DNA of 64,000 nt, taken from positions 1,212,274 to 1,276,273 of the forward strand of contig OY970212.1 in NCBI GenBank assembly GCA_963713925.1, read 5' to 3'. The notes under the pieces are model-generated. The model saw only the letters and a program-made list of their open reading frames with translations, did not search any database and was not told where the DNA came from. Positions 4,548 through 46,089 of this stretch are shown here, in pieces. Origin of the DNA: an uncultured bacterium. GTDB taxonomy: Bacteria > Babelota > Babeliae > Babelales > Vermiphilaceae. The translations under genes were made by a program, and so were the position numbers. Each line of letters opens with the position of its first letter. The first letter of the stretch is position 1.

Positions 4548-4994
4548 ATGATGAATTACAGAAATTTACTATATATGACACTGCTCTCATTTATTTCGAT
4601 GTATGTGCTCATGTATCTCATGGTTGATCGATTTGTTAATGTGTATCCAAATTTCAATCAATTCTATATGGCTGGCATTATGACCATTCCCATGATATTA
4701 ATTGAACTTGTTTTCATGGGATCCATGTACCATAACAAGAAACTCAACACTACAATTGCGATATTTAGCATAGGCATTTTTGCAGTATTGCTCTTTTTTT
4801 TAAGAAGACAAGTTGCAATAGATGATAAAGAATTCTTAAAATCAATGATTCCGCATCACGCGGGAGCCTTACTCATGTGTAAGTATGCCAAACTACAAGA
4901 TTCCGAAATTCAAGCGTTGTGCAAAAATATAAGCACGAGTCAGCAATCTGAAATTGACTTCATGAAAGCAAAGCTTGAGATACTTAAAAAATAA
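4548..4994 (+). CDS. DUF305-family membrane protein
   Basis: Three predicted TM helices, then the DUF305-type motif MIPHHAGALLMC...QQSEIDFMKAKL. The ATG abuts the TAG stop of the preceding gene. Confidence 0.65.
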   Translation: MMNYRNLLYMTLLSFISMYVLMYLMVDRFVNVYPNFNQFYMAGIMTIPMILIELVFMGSMYHNKKLNTTIAIFSIGIFAVLLFFLRRQVAIDDKEFLKSMIPHHAGALLMCKYAKLQDSEIQALCKNISTSQQSEIDFMKAKLEILKK

Positions 4995-5086: not shown

Positions 5087-5165
5087 TTGGGCCCCAAATT
5101 GTAACGAATGTGGAATTTGGGTAAAAGAATGAAGCGAAACAACGACTTGAAAGCAGTTGAGCGCT

Positions 5166-7786: not shown

Positions 7787-7807
7787 TTATATTAGATCTA
7801 TAAAGAA

Positions 7808-12375: not shown

Positions 12376-12805
12376 ATACCCATTCGAATTCTTCGACTAA
12401 CGCTTATACCCCAATTTTTTACCCATACTTCGCGAGCTTCGTATGGGCCCAGTTTCGCTTACGCTGCATTGGGGACCCCGAAACCACGAACGGGCCCCGC
12501 GCGTGAGCGTGGGTGAAAACGGGCTTTGTGCCTTTGAGTAGATTAATTTTTTTATTTTTTTGCGTTCGTGGGGTCCCCGATCGTAACGTCAGTGTAGATT
12601 GGGGTTATCATGGTGAGCGTAGCATAATTTTGGGGTCCCCGATGAAGGGTCCCATGCGTAAGTGCAACGTAAGCATGGGTAAATGGAGCGTAAGCGAAAT
12701 TGGGCCCCATACGAAGTTTGCGAAGTATGGGTAAAAATTGGGGCAATAGCGAAATCATGGGCCCCATGCGTAAGCAATGGGTGAAAATCGAACCATACGA
12801 ACTAA
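12376..12805. repeat. dense patch of degenerate family-1 hairpin modules
   Basis: At least six consecutive hairpin units. Examples: ACCCATACTTCG..CGAAGTATGGGCCC, GGGTCCCATGCGTAAG..AAGCATGGGTAAA, GGGCCCCATACGAAG..CGAAGTATGGGTAAAAA and GGGCCCCATGCGTAAGCAATGGGTGAAAATCGAACCATACGAAC. There is also a GTCCCCGATCGTAACG..GTGTAGATTGGGGTTA unit, as at 19785-19815. Confidence 0.8.
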
Positions 12806-27893: not shown

Positions 27894-29495
27894 ATGAAGC
27901 CACATACCCCTCTTGCACTTGTTATCCTCGACGGATTCGGCATTGCCGAACCCAATCCAGGCAATGCGGTAACCAGTGCAAAAACTCCCACTTTAGATCA
28001 ATTGATGAAAAACTATCCTCACACGCAGCTGAAAGCAAGCGGCAGCGCAGTGGGACTGCCTGATGGAGTTGTTGGCAACTCCGAAGTTGGACATATGACC
28101 ATTGGCACAGGACAGATCATTAAACAGGCGTTGACGATTATTAACGATGCAATCGCCGACGGATCCTTTTTTACCAATGAGCGGCTCATGCGTCCACTCA
28201 AACAGCTTGCGCTCAGTGGCAAGACTTCGCATATTATCGGTCTTTTGTCTGATGCCGGTGTACATGGAACCATGAATCATTTGATTGCCTATGCTCAGGC
28301 TGCTGAAAGTGCCGGCGTAAAAAAGATTGTCATTCATCCCATTTTAGATGGTCGAGATGTTCCACCCAAAAGCGCTGCACACTATTTGACCGATCTTGAA
28401 AAAGAATTGCAGAATATCCCTCATGCTCATATTGGAACTCTCAGTGGTAGATTTTATGCAATGGACCGCAATCGCAACTGGGATCGCACCTGCAAAACAT
28501 ATGAAGCACTAAAAACCCCAAATCTTTACCCAAATTTCACTCTGTTCCATTTGGGACCCGAACACAGTATGAGGGGGGTAAGTTCGTGGCAAAAAACTCT
28601 TGATGCCTGGTATGCCACTGGTGAAAGTGAAGAATTTCTTCCACCGATCACACTATCCCATTTTGTCATTGAATCGGGTGATGGTGTAATTCTGGCAAAC
28701 TTTCGCCCCGAGCGCATGCGGCAGCTTTATGACCTTTTGACTGGACAAGCGCCAACAAATTGCGCACAACCGACTGTTAACCTTTCTTTCTGCCTGACAG
28801 CCGTCAAATATACGGACTCAGATACTTCTGCATTGTTTGAAATTGAAAAACCATCCGTGCTTCACTTGTCCGGGCGTTCAGCTCGGCAAGTTACGCAGGA
28901 CAGGACAACCCTCAAGCAGGAATTAAGCAAAGCAGGTTATTCGATCTTCTCAATTGCGGAAACTGAAAAATACGCACATGTCACCTATTTTTTTGATGCG
29001 GGAAACGATAAACCATACCCTCATGAGCAACAGATATTAATTCCTTCAATAAAAGCGCGAACATACATTGATTATCCGTGCATGTCTGCCCCTGAAATCA
29101 CGCAGGCTGTGATTCATTCACTTGAAAACAACCCGGCCGATTTTTATTTGATTAACTATGCAAATGGAGACATGGTTGGCCATTCAGGCTCATTGCCCGC
29201 AGCAATCAAAGCAGTCGAATGTTTGGATAAGCAAATAGGAGATTTGTATCGTGAATTTGTGCAAAAAAGAAATGGCGTCTTAATTATCACTGCCGATCAT
29301 GGCAATGTCGAAAAGATGATCGATGAACATGGCAATCCTGACACTGCACATACGACAAATGATGTTCCATTCATTATTGTGAGTAAAAACAGCAAACAAT
29401 ATTCGCTTGATGGTTTGCATGGACTTTCCGATATTGCACCATTTATTTTGCATATGTTAGACCTAACAACTCCAAAGATAATGCAAAGGACCTGA
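27894..29495 (+). CDS. gpmI: 2,3-bisphosphoglycerate-independent phosphoglycerate mutase, with two repeat-derived in-frame segments
   Basis: iPGM blocks LVILDGFGI, GNSEVGHMTIGTG, ILDGRDVPP, FYAMDRNRNWDR, IAETEKYAHVTYFFDAG, MVGHSG and ADHGN. Segments at 28527-28559 and 28853-28904 match intergenic repeat families. Confidence 0.95.
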   Translation: MKPHTPLALVILDGFGIAEPNPGNAVTSAKTPTLDQLMKNYPHTQLKASGSAVGLPDGVVGNSEVGHMTIGTGQIIKQALTIINDAIADGSFFTNERLMRPLKQLALSGKTSHIIGLLSDAGVHGTMNHLIAYAQAAESAGVKKIVIHPILDGRDVPPKSAAHYLTDLEKELQNIPHAHIGTLSGRFYAMDRNRNWDRTCKTYEALKTPNLYPNFTLFHLGPEHSMRGVSSWQKTLDAWYATGESEEFLPPITLSHFVIESGDGVILANFRPERMRQLYDLLTGQAPTNCAQPTVNLSFCLTAVKYTDSDTSALFEIEKPSVLHLSGRSARQVTQDRTTLKQELSKAGYSIFSIAETEKYAHVTYFFDAGNDKPYPHEQQILIPSIKARTYIDYPCMSAPEITQAVIHSLENNPADFYLINYANGDMVGHSGSLPAAIKAVECLDKQIGDLYREFVQKRNGVLIITADHGNVEKMIDEHGNPDTAHTTNDVPFIIVSKNSKQYSLDGLHGLSDIAPFILHMLDLTTPKIMQRT

Positions 29496-29511
29496 GAAAT
29501 CAGGCCTTTGC

Positions 29512-30078
29512 TTATTTTACTGGTTTTGCATAATAGACAAAGGAATTATCTCTTCGAGTTTCTTTAAAGCCCTTTTTGAGATACACCTTTTGTGCGCGAA
29601 CATTTTCAAGGCGAGTGCCGAGAGTCACTTCCGAAACGCCCTCTTTGGCCATGTGATCAATAGCATAATCGATTAATTTTTGAGCATAACCTTGCCCACG
29701 ATATTCGGGACGCACTGCCAAGAAATTGATAAAGCCTTCATAAAAATTTTTCACATAATAGGCTGTAAATCCAACGAATTTTCCATCTTTTCGCGCGACA
29801 ATGATCTTATATTGTCCTGCATAACTTGGGTCACGGGGAGATAAATTGATAAGCATATTATCAACAGAGAAGCCTTCTCCCTCAACAAGCCACCACCAAT
29901 CTTCTTTCATGAGCTTTCTAATGTCATCCGAATCTCGCTTATAATCGAAAACAAAAAGATCAGAATAATCACGACTGATGGTCGGAGTGCTTTTAAAGGT
30001 ATACAAACCTATAATGCCCACACTTACTGCAGTCAATAAAAGCAGGGCACTTAAAAATATTTTTTTTGTAAAATTCAT
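29512..30078 (-). CDS. GNAT-family N-acetyltransferase with N-terminal membrane anchor
   Basis: Acetyl-CoA motif FLAVRPEYRGQGYAQKLIDYAI. TM helix at the N-terminus. Confidence 0.8.
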   Translation of the reverse strand: MNFTKKIFLSALLLLTAVSVGIIGLYTFKSTPTISRDYSDLFVFDYKRDSDDIRKLMKEDWWWLVEGEGFSVDNMLINLSPRDPSYAGQYKIIVARKDGKFVGFTAYYVKNFYEGFINFLAVRPEYRGQGYAQKLIDYAIDHMAKEGVSEVTLGTRLENVRAQKVYLKKGFKETRRDNSFVYYAKPVK

Positions 30079-30169
30079 AGCATTCCTATTGGAAAAATAT
30101 ATGCATCAGTGTAGATATTTTGTACTGTGCTTGCAAATAGATTATCAAAGTAGCATTTCTGCGTGGAGA

Positions 30170-30517
30170 CTAATCTTTAATCACTCTCACCCACACAGGA
30201 ACTATCCCATATGAATGTAACTCATGTGTAAAACACTCTCCCGCATCCTCGGGAACTGTAATTGAAACGCTTGTATACGTAATGTACACGTGCCACCCTC
30301 TATCAGAAGCATTTTGCTTAATTCCCCAAATATATTGGGATTTGCTTGGTGGAATGGGCAATTCGGCATGATACTCAATTGGATAACCTTCCCATTTTAA
30401 AATCAAATTTTGAGTGATTGATTCGGGCGTCATGACATCTTGACCCATAACCCATGGCAGCATCGAACAAATCGGTAAAGTGTTCATGAGAAGGGTTATA
30501 ATAATAATTTTTTTCAT
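30170..30517 (-). CDS. hypothetical small secreted protein
   Basis: 115 aa. Signal peptide MKKIIIITLLMNTLPICS. No family recognised. Confidence 0.5.
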   Translation of the reverse strand: MKKIIIITLLMNTLPICSMLPWVMGQDVMTPESITQNLILKWEGYPIEYHAELPIPPSKSQYIWGIKQNASDRGWHVYITYTSVSITVPEDAGECFTHELHSYGIVPVWVRVIKD

Positions 30518-30528
30518 AGATGACGTCT

Positions 30529-30852
30529 TTACGATTGCCGTAACGGCTTTGTGGTAATTAATCTTAATTTTTCAGACACTACGTCCATTTCTTCTCGAGA
30601 AACAATAGCAAATATTGAAACTACTCTGCTTTCTACAGGCCAATCTGTTCTTAGGCTTCCGCGATTCATAAAACTACAAGTCGCACGTGCTTCATCTAAC
30701 ATTTTTGTCACTTTAGGAAGCTCATTTCTCTTGAATGAAAATGGTTTCTCCCGTGCATCTGAATTTTGTATAAATACACTAAATTCCTCTTGATTGTCGG
30801 AGCATCGGCTCATTCCGGTAGATACAATAAGACAAAAAATAATTTGTAGCAT
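30529..30852 (-). CDS. hypothetical small secreted/lipoprotein-like protein
   Basis: Start set at MLQIIFCLIVSTGMSRC. This avoids the overlap with truA that the longer track ORF creates. Confidence 0.45.
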   Translation of the reverse strand: MLQIIFCLIVSTGMSRCSDNQEEFSVFIQNSDAREKPFSFKRNELPKVTKMLDEARATCSFMNRGSLRTDWPVESRVVSIFAIVSREEMDVVSEKLRLITTKPLRQS

Positions 30853-30856
30853 AGCT

Positions 30857-31603
30857 TCACCTCTTATAGCGCACCTTATACAATAATAAACCTTGTGCCG
30901 GAGCATTTATAAGTTCTTGACGAGCATTTTTTTCTTCGAATGCTTGCATGATCAGTTCTGACGAACGCTTCTTTGAAATCGCAATGCTCATTGCCGCTCC
31001 CACCATACGACGAATCATGTGTCGCATAAACGTATGCCCGACAACGGTAACTCGGTATACATCATACCGACGAAAATAATGCATATCAATGGATTGAATA
31101 GTTCGCACTGTATCTTCTCGCTGATCATCTTGGCAGCGAAATGAAGCAAAATCATGTGTTCCGACAAATAAATGCAGTGAGTCTCGCAGCTTCTGTTCAT
31201 CAACATCGTGCCGCACGTGCCAGCCATAGGGAGCCATCATGGGCAACGGTCTGTTTTGGAAAAAATGATACTGATATATTTTTTGAGTCACATCATCGTA
31301 CAAATCAAAATCATCGGAAGCAATCTCAGCAGAGCGAATTAAAATGTCTGCAGGCAGACGATTGTTGAGCGCAAATTTGAGTCGCTCAGGATCAACGATA
31401 ATTTCAGTCTTGAGGAGAGCAACTTGCCCAAGCGCGTGCACACCCGCATCAGTGCGCGAGACACCTTTTACTTTACACGGAGTTGAAAAGATTTTTTCAA
31501 ATGTTTTGGAAATTTCAGATGAAACGGATGGCAGGCTTGTTTGTGCCTGCCATCCAAAATAGTGTGTGCCCGAGTAGGCTATGAGAAGTTTGTAGTGAAA
31601 CAT
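30857..31603 (-). CDS. truA: tRNA pseudouridine(38-40) synthase
   Basis: IAYSGTHYFGWQAQ and the catalytic block SRTDAGVHALGQV. Confidence 0.9.
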   Translation of the reverse strand: MFHYKLLIAYSGTHYFGWQAQTSLPSVSSEISKTFEKIFSTPCKVKGVSRTDAGVHALGQVALLKTEIIVDPERLKFALNNRLPADILIRSAEIASDDFDLYDDVTQKIYQYHFFQNRPLPMMAPYGWHVRHDVDEQKLRDSLHLFVGTHDFASFRCQDDQREDTVRTIQSIDMHYFRRYDVYRVTVVGHTFMRHMIRRMVGAAMSIAISKKRSSELIMQAFEEKNARQELINAPAQGLLLYKVRYKR

Positions 31604-31693
31604 AGAGAGCCGTTTTATATATCAATGCTTACCAATTTGAGAAATATATTTATAAAATTTTGATGTTTTTTTAAGACAATGCTTCTAATCATA

Positions 31694-31864
31694 CTATTTT
31701 TGTTTTCTCTGAATTTGCGCTTGGATTTTCTTCAAATCGGGAAAAAGTTCATTGAGTCTAATATCGTTATCTCTTAAATGGCTTATTAATTTAACAATAC
31801 CATCAATCTCTTTCTGAGGTCTCCCCGCAAAAAACTTTTTAAAATCTTTTTCATTATCTTCCAT
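31694..31864 (-). CDS. possible 56-aa ORF (below the track cutoff)
   Basis: My translation reads MEDNEKDFKKFFAGRPQKEIDGIVKLISHLRDNDIRLNELFPDLKKIQAQIQRKQK. It is the only open frame in the 327-bp gap. No family recognised. Confidence 0.25.
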   Translation of the reverse strand: MEDNEKDFKKFFAGRPQKEIDGIVKLISHLRDNDIRLNELFPDLKKIQAQIQRKQK

Positions 31865-31930
31865 AAGCTTGGCTCAGACATAACATTGGTTCCATGCTGC
31901 TTAATAAAGTTAATAAATCGGGCGTGGTAT

Positions 31931-32278
31931 TCATCCAAGAGTATTAAGCGCCTTACGCAATCGTTCTGCTTGAATTGTATTGTTGATTACCACATCGCCT
32001 ATAACCGATGATTTTATTTTTTTGAACGGATCAGCTTCAACGTAACGAACTGTTACGCCAAGATCTGCAAGAGCACTGTTGAGCGGATTCCAATCATTGT
32101 GTCGTAGAGATACATGCGCTGACCACGCATAATACACTTCGTTATCAGCACCAATGCCAGGATCATATGCTATTGCACGTACACCGAGTTTAAAGGGAAT
32201 CATTGCTTGACTTGCGATGCTTGCTTGAACGAAGAAAATGGAGAAAACAAATAACAATTTACATTTCATAAAAATCAA
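31931..32278 (-). CDS. hypothetical small secreted protein
   Basis: 115 aa. Signal peptide ...KLLFVFSIFFVQASIASQA. Confidence 0.5.
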   Translation of the reverse strand: MIFMKCKLLFVFSIFFVQASIASQAMIPFKLGVRAIAYDPGIGADNEVYYAWSAHVSLRHNDWNPLNSALADLGVTVRYVEADPFKKIKSSVIGDVVINNTIQAERLRKALNTLG

Positions 32279-32296
32279 CCTCCAAGGCTATCGCAC

Positions 32297-32785
32297 CTAA
32301 TTATTTTTGCACTTTAATTCTAGTAGTTTTTCGATTAAGTCGCGATCATCTTTGTATTTTTCTTTAAAACCTCGAAGATTTTCTTCAGCCGATTCAATAA
32401 TCTCCGGACTTGAATGCCGCTCTATCCCACGCATATTTATGAAATTAACCAGGTTGTAATGATACTCCGCGGGGAGTCTAACTACTCCCCCCATAACGGT
32501 CACTTTAGAAAAATCGGTTTTATTTGTTAAGCGATTGATCGATCCATATTCATTGACAACTATGATCTTATTTTTAAACAAAAATAAAAAACAACAGAGT
32601 TGCATACGATTGACATTTTTATTGAGCTTGAACTTGTACGTAGCAAATGGTTTACCTACGGAAATGTCCTCATCTGCAGCTCCGGCAACTTCAAGAGATA
32701 CTGTACAAGATCCCTTCAAAAACTGCTCGGAAGCAGAGCAATTCAACGAAAGAAAACAAGAGAAAAAAATAATATGCAATTTCAT
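32297..32785 (-). CDS. hypothetical secreted protein
   Basis: Start set at MKLHIIFFSCFLSLNCSA, which is a signal peptide. Confidence 0.5.
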   Translation of the reverse strand: MKLHIIFFSCFLSLNCSASEQFLKGSCTVSLEVAGAADEDISVGKPFATYKFKLNKNVNRMQLCCFLFLFKNKIIVVNEYGSINRLTNKTDFSKVTVMGGVVRLPAEYHYNLVNFINMRGIERHSSPEIIESAEENLRGFKEKYKDDRDLIEKLLELKCKNN

Positions 32786-32828
32786 AAAAATATAACCTCC
32801 ATCATTTTGATACATTAAAAATCGCCCG

Positions 32829-34622
32829 TTATCGCAACGCCGCGCGCAAGACTTTCTTACGCAGACGGATGCTGAGCGGAGTCACTTCAATAAGTTCATC
32901 CGGTTTGATCCATTCCATACATTGCTCAAGTTCCATTTTTTTTGCTGGAGCAAGTCGTACTTGATCATCAGTTCCTGATGCACGCATGTTGGTCAATTTC
33001 TTCAACTTGCATGGATTTACATCAAGATCGTTGTCTCGAGCACATTCTCCAACAATTTGACCTTCGTAAATCTGATCGGTTGGCTCAACAAACAATGTTC
33101 CTCGCTCTTGCAAGGTATCAAGCGCGAATGCTGTTACCTGACCTTGTTCGATTGAAACAAGCGCACCTTTTGTACGAGTTGGAATTTCACCTTTGTATGG
33201 TTGGTAGCCATGGAAGCTCATGGTCAAGAGGCCGGTTCCACGCGTATCGGTTAAAAACTGTCCACGGAAACCAATAAGCGCACGTGATGGAATTAAATAT
33301 TCAAGACGCACACGACCATTATCATACGTTGCCATATGTTTCATATCGCCTTTGCGACGACCCATATTTTCCATAACCGCGCCTTGATATTCTGCAGGCA
33401 CATCTATCACAACAAATTCAATCGGTTCATTTTTAACGCCGTCAATTGTTTTATAAATAACTTCAGGTGCTGAAACTTGCATTTCAAACCCTTCACGGCG
33501 CATGGTTTCAATCAAAATACCCAAATGCATTTGTCCACGACCGGAAAGCTTGAATGCGTCTGCAGATTGTGTCGGCTCAACACGAAGTGCAACGTTTGTT
33601 TTAAGTTCTTTTTCAAGACGATCTTTGATCTGACGTGAGGTAAGCAACTTGCCTTCTCTGCCGTTGAATGGAGAATCGTTTACCGACATATACATCGAAA
33701 CAGTAGGCTCATCCACCTTTACATATGGATACGGAGCCGGATGCTCAACATCACAGAGCGTTGTTCCGATTGAAGTCGGCTCATTAAACCCGGTTACGGC
33801 AACAATATCGCCATATTTTGCTTCGGGAGTTTCAACTTTTGCGAGCCCGATAAATTTAAAAATTTTGGTGATTTTAATAGGTTTGCTGACAAACTCATCT
33901 TTACACATAATGACTTGGCTGCCGACCTTCATGCTGCCGCTGAAAATACGGCCAACTGCAATGGGCCCCAAGAAATCGGAGTGGTCAAGATTGGTAACGA
34001 GCATTTGCAATGTATCAATTTTAGGGGAAGGAGCAGGAACATGCCCAACAATTGCTTCAAAGAGCGGTTGCATGGTTCCTTCACGCTTGGTTGAATCTTG
34101 AGACGCATAACCAAAACGAGACGATCCGTAAAACACCGGAAAATCTAACTGACTTTCATCTGTAGCTAAATCTAAAAACAGGTCATGCACCAAGCCTTCA
34201 GTGCGTGCAATGTCTGCATCTTTACGGTCAATTTTGTTAATTACCACGATTGGCTTAAGCCCGAGCGCCAAGGCTTTTTGCAACACAAAACGGGTTCCTG
34301 GCAATACACCTTCAGCGGCATCGACAATTAAAAGGAAACCTTCGACCATCTGCAATGTTCGTTCAACTTCTCCACCAAAGTCACTGTGACCGGGGGTGTC
34401 TACGATATTAATGGTATATCCGTTCCAGGTTATACCGGTATTTTTTGCCAAAATGGTAATACCGCGTTCACGCTCAAGATCATTTGAGTCCATGACACGC
34501 TCGGTCTGCATATCCTGCAGGGTGCCTGATTGGCGTAAAAGTTGGTCGACGAGGGTCGTTTTTCCATGGTCAACGTGAGCAATGATAGCGACGTTACGAA
34601 CATCTGTACGTTTTGTATTCAT
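32829..34622 (-). CDS. typA: translational GTPase TypA/BipA
   Basis: G motifs [24 protein letters not shown] and NKIDR. EF-G-like domains without domain IV, and a BipA-type C-terminus. Start set at [14 protein letters not shown]. Confidence 0.95.
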
Positions 34623-34834
34623 AGGTATTGGGATCTCCAAGTTCAAAAGAGGCAATGGGCAATCGATGTGCCCATTGTAAAAAGCTTTTCTTAATTTCTA
34701 TTCTAACATTAGAAATTCAAATTGCATAGAGGATTATTGGGACCCAAGCGTAACTCATGGAGCTTGGGATAAAAAAAGGGTCCACCTGAAAAAGTGAACC
34801 CTTTTTTATGTAATCTGAGACTACCGTGAAAATC

Positions 34835-35122
34835 TTAGATTGTTGGTGCTGCGTATGGAAGAAGTCCCATAACACGAGCTTTTCTGATTTCACGAGCCAA
34901 CAAACGTTGGTATTTTGCACAATTGCCCGAAATTCGGGATGACAATATTTTGCCACGCTCTGTTAAAAAGCCGCGCAAAAACTGAGCATTTTTGTAATCA
35001 ATCATAGCAACCATTTCCGGGTTATTGGAAAAACGGCAATGCTTGCTCGAACCGAAACCTTGGCGACGGTTTCTTTTTTTGAGGAGTCGGGCACTAATTT
35101 TAAGTTTGATTTTCTTTGTCAT
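34835..35122 (-). CDS. rpsR: 30S ribosomal protein S18
   Basis: IDYKNAQFLRGFLTERGKILSSRISGNCAKYQRLLAREIRKARVMGLLPY. Confidence 0.9.
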   Translation of the reverse strand: MTKKIKLKISARLLKKRNRRQGFGSSKHCRFSNNPEMVAMIDYKNAQFLRGFLTERGKILSSRISGNCAKYQRLLAREIRKARVMGLLPYAAPTI

Positions 35123-35221
35123 AATCGTTTCCTTTACCCAATTTCTTACCCAAATTTCGCTTAAGCTTCATTTGGGGCCCTATTTTTCAATTTAGGCTTG
35201 GGACCAAAATCTATAATAAAT

Positions 35222-35641
35222 TTACGCTTCGAGATCTTGCATATCGTCTGAACTGCTGGCAGCATTTCTTTCCGCAGCCGCTGCTGATTCACGAGAAGGA
35301 ACTTCTTCTAGTGATTGAGGGCGATGGTATGCCAAAGAGGCAGTTGCAGGAAGAACATTGACCATATCGCGCATAACAGTATCATTGAGCTTTACAATCA
35401 TGAGGTTTTTGACTGCTGATACGATCGCAGCATTTTTTTCAGCTTCAAAGCGAGCCAAGAAATAAACGCCATATTCATTTTTTTTGATCGGGTATGCTAA
35501 GCGATATTTTCCCCATCGCTCGAATGAAATCATGGAACCCTTATTTTCAGCAACCACTCGAGAGATCTGAGACTCTATATTTTTAGCCTCATCCTGAGTA
35601 AGCGTAGGAACGGCAAGCACTAATGCTTCGTAACGTACCAT
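35222..35641 (-). CDS. rpsF: 30S ribosomal protein S6
   Basis: MVRYEALVLAVP..., WGKYRLAYPIKK and an acidic C-terminal tail. Confidence 0.9.
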   Translation of the reverse strand: MVRYEALVLAVPTLTQDEAKNIESQISRVVAENKGSMISFERWGKYRLAYPIKKNEYGVYFLARFEAEKNAAIVSAVKNLMIVKLNDTVMRDMVNVLPATASLAYHRPQSLEEVPSRESAAAAERNAASSSDDMQDLEA

Positions 35642-40620: not shown

Positions 40621-40852
40621 AAAAAATCTGCTCTCCGTTTTACCCATGCTTTCGCATGGGGCACTCGCTGTTCGTGGTGAGCGAAACGTAGTGCAGTCGA
40701 ACCATACGAACAAAAAAATATGCATATGGGATAGCGGGTAATGAAAAATTTTGCAAAAAAGACACAAACAAAAAAGTTCGAATGGTTCGACTACGTTGCA
40801 TTTTTTCCCATGCTTTACGCATGGGGCCCGCAACTTCGCTCACCACGAACGG
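40621..40852. mobile_element. family-1 MITE-like inverted pair between gspE and the pseudopilin gene
   Basis: Left arm at 40621-40711 (AAAAAATCTGCTCTCCG...GTCGAACCATACGAAC). Right arm at 40776-40852 (GTTCGAATGGTTCGAC...CTCACCACGAACGG). The 64-nt centre is reverse-complement homologous to the centre of the 62458-62609 copy. Confidence 0.8.
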
Positions 40853-40866
40853 CTGGAGATTGTTTT

Positions 40867-41394
40867 ATGCCTACGATAAAAATTCAATGGAGCCTAGATC
40901 GCCTACGCCCCAGTAAATCCGGATTTACACTCGTGGAACTCATGGTTGTGATTACTGTTGTCTGTGTGATAGCAGGCTTAGGCATACTACAGTCTTCTTC
41001 ATTTGCACACATCACAGCACGTTCTGAGTTGTATAAACTACATGCCGTTTGCCGCTATCTACAATCGCTCGCTCGCACAACCGGCCATACGCAGCAGTTA
41101 GTCTTCACATGCAACGGATATCAATTTGATGGACAGGAAACAACATTTGCCTCAGGTGTTTCAATTGGATGTAAACCGGGAATATATGGCCCTCCCGGAA
41201 AGCCGACGCATGCAGTCAACGGCCCCTGCAGTTTTGCTCATAACCGAATTGATTTTCATCCTCATGGCATTATAAGCTCAGGCGTGGTATACATCAAAGG
41301 ATGTGATGGTAGACAATATGCACTCAGCAACAGTGTTTCAGATATTTCTTACCTAAGAAATTATGAATATGCTGATGGTTGGCGCCAAATATAA
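40867..41394 (+). CDS. prepilin-type pseudopilin (GspH/FimT-like)
   Basis: Class III signal ...RPSKSG/FTLVELMVVITVV with Gly at -1, Phe at +1 and Glu at +5. Start set at ATG 40867. The track ORF from 40741 translates the MITE. Confidence 0.8.
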   Translation: MPTIKIQWSLDRLRPSKSGFTLVELMVVITVVCVIAGLGILQSSSFAHITARSELYKLHAVCRYLQSLARTTGHTQQLVFTCNGYQFDGQETTFASGVSIGCKPGIYGPPGKPTHAVNGPCSFAHNRIDFHPHGIISSGVVYIKGCDGRQYALSNSVSDISYLRNYEYADGWRQI

Positions 41395-41428
41395 AACCCC
41401 ATGTGAACCGGGGGAACCTCCAAATATA

Positions 41429-41575
41429 AGAGCTTATACGAAAAATTAAGCTCTCTACCTAAAAAAGGGTTGGTTGTCATGCTGAACTTGTTTCAGCATC
41501 CAGGTTAAATAGATCCTGAAATAAATTCAGGATGACATAACAATAAGGAATTTCCGGTATTTTCTGATAAGCTCT
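41429..41575 (+). mobile_element. family-2 147-bp TIR-bounded element (copy 2), upstream of tamB
   Basis: AGAGCTTATACGAAAA ... TTTTCTGATAAGCTCT inverted termini. The 64-nt core is identical to copy 1. It ends 7 nt before the tamB ATG. Confidence 0.85.
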
Positions 41576-44306: not shown

Positions 44307-45152
44307 ATGAAGCATATGGTAGTAGTAATACTGTGCGCGTTATCGACAATAACGCCCGCAACATGGTGTATATATAACAAAACTCATTTTGTTATTGACC
44401 AGTCAGGAAATCCGGTAAAAGATGCTCAGTTGTCCCAGGGTTTGGATTCAATTGAACGCCCTCGAGAAAAAAAGAACAGTTCATATCGCGTCTTTTTCAG
44501 CCCAAATGATGATGTGCGCGCCCGCCTGATCGATTTGATCAATCACGAAAAGAAATCTATTAAAGTTTCTATTTTTATGTTCACCGATAAGGATATCGCA
44601 CATGCGCTCATTAGTGCGGCGCAACGGAATGTTCAAGTGGCTGTCATTGTTGATGGAGCAGCGAGCGCTGATCGATTTAGTAAAATTGAAATGCTCAAGC
44701 GTTCCGGCATTGATGTTTTTGAATATAAACCGCAAGCCCCAACCGGTATCAACAATGATATCATGCATCACAAATTTGTAATTTTTGGATCAAATCAAGA
44801 TGATTGCTCATTGCTCTGGACAGGATCATGTAATTTCACACGATCTGCATCAGTGCGTAATCGAGAAAATGTTATCGTACTTGATGATACGGGTGTAATA
44901 GAACAATTTGAGCAAGAATTTGAGCGTCTGAAGCAAATAATTAAAAAATCATCATCCATGCTTCACTTGTCCGGGCGGTCTTACCCAAGTTCCGTTTCAC
45001 TACACTTGGGGCCCAAACTTCAGCTCGGCCCTGTGCGCCATAGCTCCTACGAGCGGCGGCGTAAAGTTACGCAGGACAGGCAAGCTACACGACAAGTTCG
45101 AAAGGCAAGCAGGATAACCAAGCGATATATCAGAAATAATGAAATATGTTGA
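44307..45152 (+). CDS. secreted single-HKD phospholipase D-family protein (Nuc-like), with repeat-derived C-terminal extension
   Basis: Signal peptide. IKVSIFMFTDKDIAHALISAAQRNVQVAVIVD. HKD motif MHHKFVIFG...GSCNFTRSA. The last ~65 codons (from about 44954) are a family repeat copy translated in frame. Confidence 0.8.
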   Translation: MKHMVVVILCALSTITPATWCIYNKTHFVIDQSGNPVKDAQLSQGLDSIERPREKKNSSYRVFFSPNDDVRARLIDLINHEKKSIKVSIFMFTDKDIAHALISAAQRNVQVAVIVDGAASADRFSKIEMLKRSGIDVFEYKPQAPTGINNDIMHHKFVIFGSNQDDCSLLWTGSCNFTRSASVRNRENVIVLDDTGVIEQFEQEFERLKQIIKKSSSMLHLSGRSYPSSVSLHLGPKLQLGPVRHSSYERRRKVTQDRQATRQVRKASRITKRYIRNNEIC

Positions 45153-45801: not shown

Positions 45802-46089
45802 AACATCCTCCTGATTTTTACCCAAATTCCGTTTTCAACTTCATTTGGGACCCCACAAAATTGGATTTGGGGGTTATTTATTGGGAAAACCTCCATTTCC
45901 CCTGTCCCTGCATCTTCATTTTTTATGGTAGCATATTAAGAATGGTAAATTCAATAAAAAGTGCGTAAAAATAAGGCTTTTTTATTCTTTAGATATTAAC
46001 AGTCAAATTTCAAATACAGAAAAAAGCAACTCAAACTCTTGCGTTTGAAATTGCTTTTTTGCTATAATGCAAGCAATTAAGGAGTTGGC

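Follow-up and report, generated by a model that had tools for sequence, protein, structure and literature searches.

Mobile hairpins that come to rest inside genes are known from yeast mitochondria in the form of the GC clusters and byps, some of which are bypassed in translation. In bacteria the Rickettsia palindromic elements (RPEs; RPE-1 to RPE-10; Ogata et al. 2000, 2002) are described as lying in frame inside many housekeeping genes (PMC10969869, PMC3733652), and repetitive extragenic palindromic (REP) elements of the GTAG and CGTC superfamilies, believed to lack autonomy and to depend for their movement on HUH tyrosine transposases (REP-associated tyrosine transposases, RAYTs), include intragenic members and members within other palindromes (PMC3733652). 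[quoted passage not shown] Here we describe a 64,000-nucleotide stretch of contig OY970212.1 (the window in what follows; GC content about 40%) from an uncultured, Dependentiae-like bacterium, in which the gpmI gene for cofactor-independent phosphoglycerate mutase (iPGM) carries, at a place that we call site 1, a 45-nt hairpin element with relatives in the spacers of the same DNA. We consider it quite likely that this insert is a copy of a selfish, REP/RPE-like hairpin repeat that is translated with its host gene and tolerated.

An insertion in gpmI relative to its orthologues

The gpmI coding sequence (27894-29495, + strand) is an intact open reading frame (ORF) of 533 amino acids that hosts two in-frame repeat insertions, at sites 1 and 2. 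Its product, GpmI, scores 506.1 bits against the TIGR01307 equivalog over residues 6-531 (cut-off 330.65), a value that rises to 538.7 bits once both inserts are deleted in silico, and it retains 50 of the 50 invariant columns in an alignment of 120 orthologue sequences, including D13, S63, H67, D155, R192, R271, K359, D426, H430, D468, H469 and H486, with the catalytic serine and the metal ligands among the residues kept. A preliminary description of this DNA had noted that the reading frame is maintained and that conserved motifs continue downstream of the repeat, and the profile score and the invariant columns bear this out; judged from sequence and model, GpmI would be a functional enzyme. 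The best database homologues, of which the named ones are from Dependentiae or Babeliales, are 52-56% identical to it, and the nearest solved structures are the Bacillus iPGMs 1EJJ and 1O98.

Between L206 and W232 the loop is 10 residues long in 103 of the 120 orthologues and 25 in GpmI of the window, and the alignment shows the site-1 segment to be an insertion relative to orthologues; the extra length suspected earlier in the variable part between the conserved MDRNRNWDR and FRPERMRQ blocks is thus real. The sequence TACCCAAATTTCACTCTGTTCCATTTGGGACCC is located at 28527-28559 and is translated as ...LYPNFTLFHLGP..., and the hairpin that contains it (28525-28559) has the form TTTA-CCCAAAT-(13 nt)-ATTTGGG-ACCC. 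Its 27-nt core comprises a 7-bp stem and a 13-nt loop, all on the + strand: the 5' arm CCCAAAT (28529-28535), preceded by TTTA at 28525-28528, the loop TTCACTCTGTTCC (28536-28548) and the 3' arm ATTTGGG with the conserved tail ACCC (28549-28559). A duplicate of the 5' arm, CCCAAAT, lies upstream at 28517-28523 (+ strand) as a component of the composite element, and is found as well in the copies at 35137 and 12410.

The 15-residue excess and the DNA alignments together delimit an element of 45 nt (28515-28559, + strand), corresponding to the 15 codons T208-P222 and the peptide TPNLYPNFTLFHLGP. In local alignments the copy between rpsF and rpsR (35137-35180) matches 28516-28559 and the copy at 12408-12431 matches from 28514, and both of these boundary-setting alignments take in the upstream 5'-arm duplicate ACCCCAAATCTT, which those intergenic copies also possess. 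An alternative placement, 28524-28568 (+ strand; peptide LYPNFTLFHLGPEHS), illustrates a boundary uncertainty of up to 9 nt; a position profile of the native 10-residue loop gives only negative scores for both placements and favours neither. From the alignments 28515-28559 appears to be the best-fitting position, and removal of these 45 nt leaves ...YEALK/EHSMRGVSSWQK..., a loop of normal length. The 28527-28590 interval first proposed for the site therefore holds in its core (28527-28559) and fails in its extent, for the element begins 12 nt further upstream and 28590 lies beyond it. A predicted tryptic peptide spanning the insert, TPNLYPNFTLFHLGPEHSMR, would run from K207/T208 to R227.

An AlphaFold2 model of GpmI built on the 120-sequence alignment has a mean predicted local distance difference test (pLDDT) score of 91.5 and a predicted TM (pTM) score of 0.90, and superposes on the closed iPGM 1O98 with TM values of 0.84/0.87. 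Blocks of 10 residues with a mean pLDDT below 70 occur nowhere but in 211-230 (52 and 49) and 321-340 (43 and 64). The two stretches, flanked by helices 196-207/232-240 and by strand 312-315/helix 340-346, respectively, coincide with the site-1 and site-2 inserts. Both inserts are thus modelled as loops outside the core, with surface exposure of the loop predicted.

Two other identities for the site-1 hairpin were tried and rejected: a transcription terminator would have its T-run 3' of the stem, whereas here the run is on the 5' side, and the insert has just 15 residues, without matching motifs, which removes an intein or intron. Immediately upstream of gpmI are three ORFs (26294-26638, 26625-27437 and 27463-27870) with no Pfam match. 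They have short similar stretches in common (26443-26469 with 27624-27650; 26579-26608 with 27760-27789) and, because of these, the ORFs of 26294-27870 are probably tandem paralogues.

A dispersed family of nesting hairpins

The pattern CCCAAAT-N6-20-ATTTGGG occurs 4 times in the window, where 0.01 matches are expected, and none of 100 dinucleotide shuffles reaches this number. Outside gpmI the matches lie at 35149-35176, at 45821-45849 and, in reverse orientation, at 5093-5121. The closest sister copy (35137-35180, + strand) occupies the rpsF-rpsR spacer, between Pfam-confirmed genes of the - strand, and has the same 5'-arm duplication. A second intergenic copy with this stem (45814-45853, + strand) precedes the start of a - strand ankyrin-repeat gene by 20 nt, and the reverse copy (5089-5126, - strand) lies between aspS and a convergent DUF305 gene. 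The spacer copies of the preliminary description are therefore present, at 35147-35180 and 45820-45853, and do have the architecture of the gpmI module, with flanks, stem and loop type in common; the reverse copy is an addition to them. End-to-end local alignments of the site-1 insert with three intergenic copies score 37, 36 and 30, compared with a mean best score of 25.4 (sd 3.0) for shuffled queries, and the likeness extends over 38-44 nt with flanks included. Within the DUF305 ORF there is also a weak match to the site-1 element (4638-4671; AATGTGTATCCAAATTTCAATCAATTCTATATGG), with a score at the level of the shuffled controls, that may be a decayed old copy or a product of chance.

These four belong to a larger hairpin family of about 18 copies in 64 kb, with the general form TT(T)TTA-CCC[4 variable stem bases]-loop-[complement]GGG-RCCC and the consensus TTTTTACCC...GGGGCCC, in which the ends T(T)A and RCCC are found in 17 of 17 aligned copies and the stems include CCCAAAT, CCCATGC, CCCATAC, CCCAAGC, CCCAAGT, CCCCAAT and CCCCAGT. 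When the flanks alone are sought (T[AT]CCC...GGG[AG]CC within 70 nt) there are 22 matches as against 1.5 in shuffles, 12 of the 22 with perfect stems of at least 7 bp. Over the 17 copies the three outer C-G pairs are invariant and the four inner pairs change only in compensation (27 double changes, no single change, 99% of cells paired), and pairing falls sharply when the partner columns are slid. The distribution of the copies is strongly skewed, with only 3 of 18 in called ORFs in a window that is 84.5% coding sequence (P = 4e-10), and one of these three sits in a spurious 5' extension, so that 2 of 18 are truly coding and 15 or 16 intergenic. In the TTACCC...GGGRCCC orientation 6-11% of copies contain a stop codon in a given frame, as compared with 39-67% in reverse, and both coding copies, in gpmI and in a phospholipase-D-like (PLD-like) ORF, have the forward orientation and the identical codon phase.

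Site 2 of gpmI (28851-28904, + strand) holds a different module, of 48-54 nt, that encodes (PS)VLHLSGRSARQVTQDR and adds 16 residues, giving a loop of 25 residues where 113 of the 120 orthologues have 9. Its hairpin is strong, at -24.4 kcal/mol (z -3.6). Aligned to 1EJJ the insert falls near the boundary of the transferase and phosphatase domains, at what we take to be the position of this boundary in the B. stearothermophilus iPGM, and among the GpmI orthologues only that of the window genome accommodates 16 extra residues in the segment near it. Both ends of the site-2 element are met again in the PLD-like ORF, whose C-terminal tail has them at 44953-44977 and 45064-45080, and two further hairpins are nested inside this site-2-type module. 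One of them belongs to a module with a CCCAAGT/ACTTGGG stem (44978-45018, + strand; hairpin 44984-45010) that reads YPSSVSLHLGP, with orientation and codon phase as in gpmI (SYPSSVSLHLGPK versus LYPNFTLFHLGPE) and Y-P-...-H-L-G-P in both proteins. The PLDc_2 domain of the PLD-like ORF ends at residue 208; the last ~65 residues are therefore best read as a continuation of translation into repeats, and the ORF (tail 44953-45152) has probably been extended by these ~65 repeat-derived residues.

Further types of hairpin module occur in the window and modules are nested within one another, at 12409-12474, 19760-19848, 40770-40857 and 44953-45080, as insertion events would produce. In an intergenic example (12408-12478, + strand) the outer module is CCCCAAT...ATTGGGG and the inner one, TTTTTACCCATAC...GTATGGGCCC, a hairpin of the present family, is placed at the junction of the outer 5' stem and loop; at 19760-19848 a CCGTTCGTGGTGAGC...TCGAACCATACGAAC module encloses one of the form CCCCGATC...GATTGGGG, and at 40770-40857 a TTACCC...GGGRCCC hairpin lies inside a module of this same CCGTTCGTGGTGAGC...TCGAACCATACGAAC kind. 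Spacers of the window contain about 10 copies of the module CCGTTCGTGGTGAGC...(A)GTCGAACCATWCGAAC, with positions at 7805, 15416, 19661, 19760, 40668, 40770, 59252, 59392, 59476, 62456 and 62566.

Two observations concern genes next to such modules. The longest ORF of a prepilin-like gene with an N_methyl motif begins inside repeat modules (40741-40866), and translation probably starts in fact at the ATG of position 40867, which a GGAG precedes. A repeat of ~150 nt (19936-20076 and 41423-41563, 85% identical, with a perfectly conserved 59-nt core and two 8-bp hairpins) is found immediately upstream both of clpB and of a gene like TamB; it could represent a leader or regulatory element common to the two, or else a further family of repeats.

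Origin and fate of the insert

We envisage a dispersed, REP/MITE-like and probably selfish repeat, TTTTTA-CCC(stem)-loop-(stem)GGG-RCCC, of which one copy would have landed in gpmI and survived there by virtue of a length of 45 nt, a multiple of three, a nearly stop-free orientation and a permissive loop of the transferase domain. It would then be transcribed and translated with the gene, adding the ~15 residues of TPNLYPNFTLFHLGP, which probably make a flexible detour from one helix to the next. The insert, we infer, is translated and neutral, with no required function of its own. In spacers any copy could persist and in genes only stop-free, multiple-of-three copies in permissive loops, so that the almost wholly intergenic distribution of the family would arise because selection removes gene-breaking copies. 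As for movement, transposition of a single-stranded hairpin by an HUH/Y1 enzyme is a conjecture that would fit the nesting, the lack of clear duplications and the conserved TTAC; this tetranucleotide beside the stem could be the cleavage or target site of such a transposase, by analogy with IS608, which uses TTAC.

Several points weigh against this account. The copies used for the covariation analysis were partly chosen as paired, a bias that the flank-only count reduces without removing. No two family copies are identical, so that nothing indicates current mobility, and the activity of the family may be ancient. A Pfam scan of the 55 ORFs in the window (64 kb of a ~1.32-Mb contig) identifies no transposase, integrase or RAYT, and there is no clear target-site duplication at the 28515/28559, 40795/40831 or 44977/45018 junctions, one possible duplication, AAACG, being seen only at 19780/19820. 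The boundaries of the site-1 element cannot be fixed to a single nucleotide, and the low pLDDT at the inserts may stem in part from missing homologous sequence. The site-1 hairpin is weak, its -6.1 kcal/mol being equal to the mean of other gpmI windows; site 1 is made distinctive by membership of a repeat family and not by stability, and the idea of a strong RNA structure at this site was dropped. Finally, with the best GpmI homologue 52-56% identical, no close relative with an empty site was found.

Pattern scans likewise give no clear relative. Among 185,579 species genomes there are 4 matches (in Bacteroidota, Hyphomicrobiaceae, Patescibacteria and Planctomycetes), a chance level, with none resembling a relative, and the 2 matches in Joint Genome Institute (JGI) metagenomes are again at chance level, one of them being the same Patescibacteria sequence. 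The other (L015:2295-2327, on a 2.7-kb contig with a GC content of 0.39) is a convincing look-alike, TTTACCCAAAT-TACGCTTCGCTTC-ATTTGGGGCCC, that directly follows tRNA-Val in a Val-Asn-Asp tRNA cluster, and this contig may come from a relative carrying the same hairpin family.

More distant Dependentiae are informative about the loops themselves. Insertions of at least 8 residues number 11 events in 9 of the 120 GpmI orthologues, clustered at about five positions, and 111 of the 120 have none. An insertion is found in the loop of site 1 in three other GpmI proteins, and iPGM accepts 12-37 extra residues after helix 196-207 in several lineages; on this sequence evidence elements have repeatedly landed, or survived, in the site-1 loop. 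When the DNA of seven inserts from other lineages is folded, six form strong hairpins (z -2.7 to -4.9 relative to windows of the same gene). Those of loci L005 and L007, in the site-1 loop, have arms of 26 and 22 nt and ends, CCCTCAAT...ATTGAGGGGCC, that resemble the family of the window, and because these arms are conserved as DNA across different reading frames they are sequence of an element and not coding sequence. The L013 insert has intergenic copies in its own locus, in a nearby spacer (L013:12726-12928), and the GpmI genes of L012 (10953) and L008 (10872) contain in-frame inserts resembling the CCGTTCGTGGTGAGC...TCGAACCATWCGAAC module of the window. A search for TTACCC...GGGRCCC hairpins in seven other Dependentiae gpmI loci found none, and the inserts of different lineages are unrelated in sequence and length.

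These comparisons suggest that in-frame palindromes characterise the phylum and are not peculiar to one genome. The CCGTTCGTGGTGAGC...TCGAACCATWCGAAC module appears to be common to lineages whose GpmI proteins are only ~50% identical, which suggests that the CCGTTCGTGGTGAGC...(A)GTCGAACCATWCGAAC family is phylum-wide or horizontally spread. It is conceivable, though we hold it to be doubtful, that Dependentiae carry an entire, so far undescribed superfamily of very small nesting hairpins that returns again and again to particular permissive loops in housekeeping enzymes, with TTAC as an HUH/Y1 site; if true, protein-coding palindromes would have an independent, RPE-like example here.

In a related clade the orthologue P0111 (L010:3954-4019) has only a 5' palindrome arm, CCCTCAATTCTTCGGGGCGAACGG, in a loop of normal length, and P0078 and P0041 (L007:7087-7236 and L005:844-1017) have both palindrome arms in the site-1 loop. 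Either loop and 3' arm were deleted from P0111 or the palindrome of its relatives arose in situ from native sequence. A comparison of L005, L007, L008 and L010-L013 with 27894-35641 of the window shows that the order gpmI - GNAT acetyltransferase - pseudouridine synthase - BipA - (rpsR) - rpsF is common to distant Dependentiae; BipA of L008 is in three ORFs, possibly the result of assembly errors.

The half-palindrome of P0111, next to the two-armed P0078 and P0041, is what might be expected if repair or replication had made the palindrome in place (by template switching, by snap-back synthesis or through gene conversion with an intergenic copy as donor), with a 5' arm that is partly native. 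The resemblance of K-T-P-N to T-x-P-Q, the consensus with which the native loop begins, and the failure to see either a target-site duplication or a transposase in the 64 kb, point in this direction as well. We nevertheless regard a local origin as unlikely. The supposedly native extension ACCCCAAATCTT also precedes the intergenic copies at 12408 and 35137, and because these copies have the same 5' extension site 1 of the window is better read as an imported element; moreover, local synthesis leaves unexplained the flanks, stem and loop type common to three unlinked intergenic copies, and it must contend with arms in L005/L007 that are conserved as DNA in different frames.

It could also be argued that the insert has been co-opted, with a hairpin in the mRNA regulating gpmI (through ribosome pausing, as an RNase target or through mRNA stability) or with the loop providing a new interaction. 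Palindromic inserts in the same GpmI loop in at least 4 lineages, stems maintained through compensated changes and the single reading phase, with Y-P-...-H-L-G-P, in both coding copies would be in keeping with such a role. A folding energy no better than the gene average is not what a regulatory hairpin at site 1 would lead one to expect, the insert peptide has no confident predicted structure, and the unrelated sequences and lengths of the lineage inserts are a better fit to a permissive loop than to a conserved function; in addition, 111 of the 120 orthologues manage without any insert of at least 8 residues. We thus consider co-option very unlikely.

That the insert is missing from the protein, either through ribosome bypass or RNA removal or because gpmI is a decaying pseudogene, strikes us as barely credible. 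Take-off and landing codons could in principle be supplied by CCA AAT, directly repeated at 28518-28523 and 28530-28535, and the bypassed hairpins of yeast mitochondria are a precedent; programmed bypassing, however, spans an untranslatable gap, and the site-1 insert is open, so that the matching codons exist and are not needed. Both gpmI inserts consist of whole codons (15 and 16) and are free of stops, a constraint that neither bypass nor RNA removal would impose, and translation is therefore favoured over both. The complete ORF, the invariant catalytic columns and an equivalog score far above the cut-off also speak against an insert missing from the protein. At gathering thresholds no Rfam family matches anywhere in the 64-kb window, which counts against this reading too and also means that no tRNA or other known RNA gene lies there.

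An ancestral variable loop that resembles the spacer repeats by coincidence would suit the least conserved part of that stretch of the alignment and was foreseen in the preliminary description as the outcome should relatives free of the repeat possess a homologous segment of equal length, but such relatives do not possess one, and with 10 residues in 103 orthologues, four stem matches for 0.01 expected, 38-44 nt of similarity to three loci including flanks, and the same module in the same phase in an unrelated PLD-like gene, this explanation is already contradicted and we give it practically no weight.

Relation to known systems

Rickettsia offers the best-known cases of selfish DNA read in frame within proteins, and a copy of a selfish repeat in gpmI of the window would place such DNA in a second, unrelated intracellular lineage, with much smaller and nested modules; susceptibility to it may be a general property of reduced genomes in intracellular bacteria. 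Permissive protein loops could be mapped from the sites at which such elements survive, and the repeat family may serve as a lineage marker. There is a practical side as well, in that these inserts inflate or distort alignments and gene calls in metagenome-assembled Dependentiae, the PLD-like tail and the spurious N-terminal extension at 40741 being cases in point. Searches of the open-access literature on Dependentiae/TM6 brought up nothing on palindromic or in-frame repeat elements, and the hairpin family is new, though of a known kind, and apparently unreported in Dependentiae.

The likeness to RPEs is in palindromic repeats of a small genome of an intracellular bacterium that are found both in spacers and in frame in functional housekeeping genes, where they encode a peptide at positions tolerated by the fold. 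RPEs are ~100-150 bp long, whereas the insert in the window has 45 nt and a 7-bp stem; they end in CGTC (PMC3733652), and neither CGTC nor GACG is present on either strand of 28515-28559. The host, too, is Dependentiae-like and not a Rickettsia, and the modules of the window have many stems and nest.

REP elements are similar in being hairpins of 20-40 bp with many copies, mostly intergenic and occasionally in genes or in other palindromes. The family described here differs in having no GTAG/CGTC tag, its stem being preceded by TT(T)A and followed by RCCC, in the absence of a RAYT gene within the 64-kb window, and in its host, REP-rich genomes so far described not including Dependentiae. With bacterial MITEs it has in common that non-coding mobile repeats overlap or extend ORFs and alter C-termini, an effect that the PLD-like tail reproduces, but MITEs are 70-400 bp in length with terminal inverted repeats and target-site duplications, and the element of the window has neither the size nor the duplication. 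Like the hairpins of organelles it is a short element inside a protein-coding gene that is not destroyed by it; those are organellar and some of them are bypassed, whereas the insert in gpmI is open and a multiple of three and requires no bypass. Thus, the element of the window acts like an RPE or a REP but is a member of neither group, set apart from both by the lack of a GTAG or CGTC tag and from RPEs and MITEs by its far smaller length.

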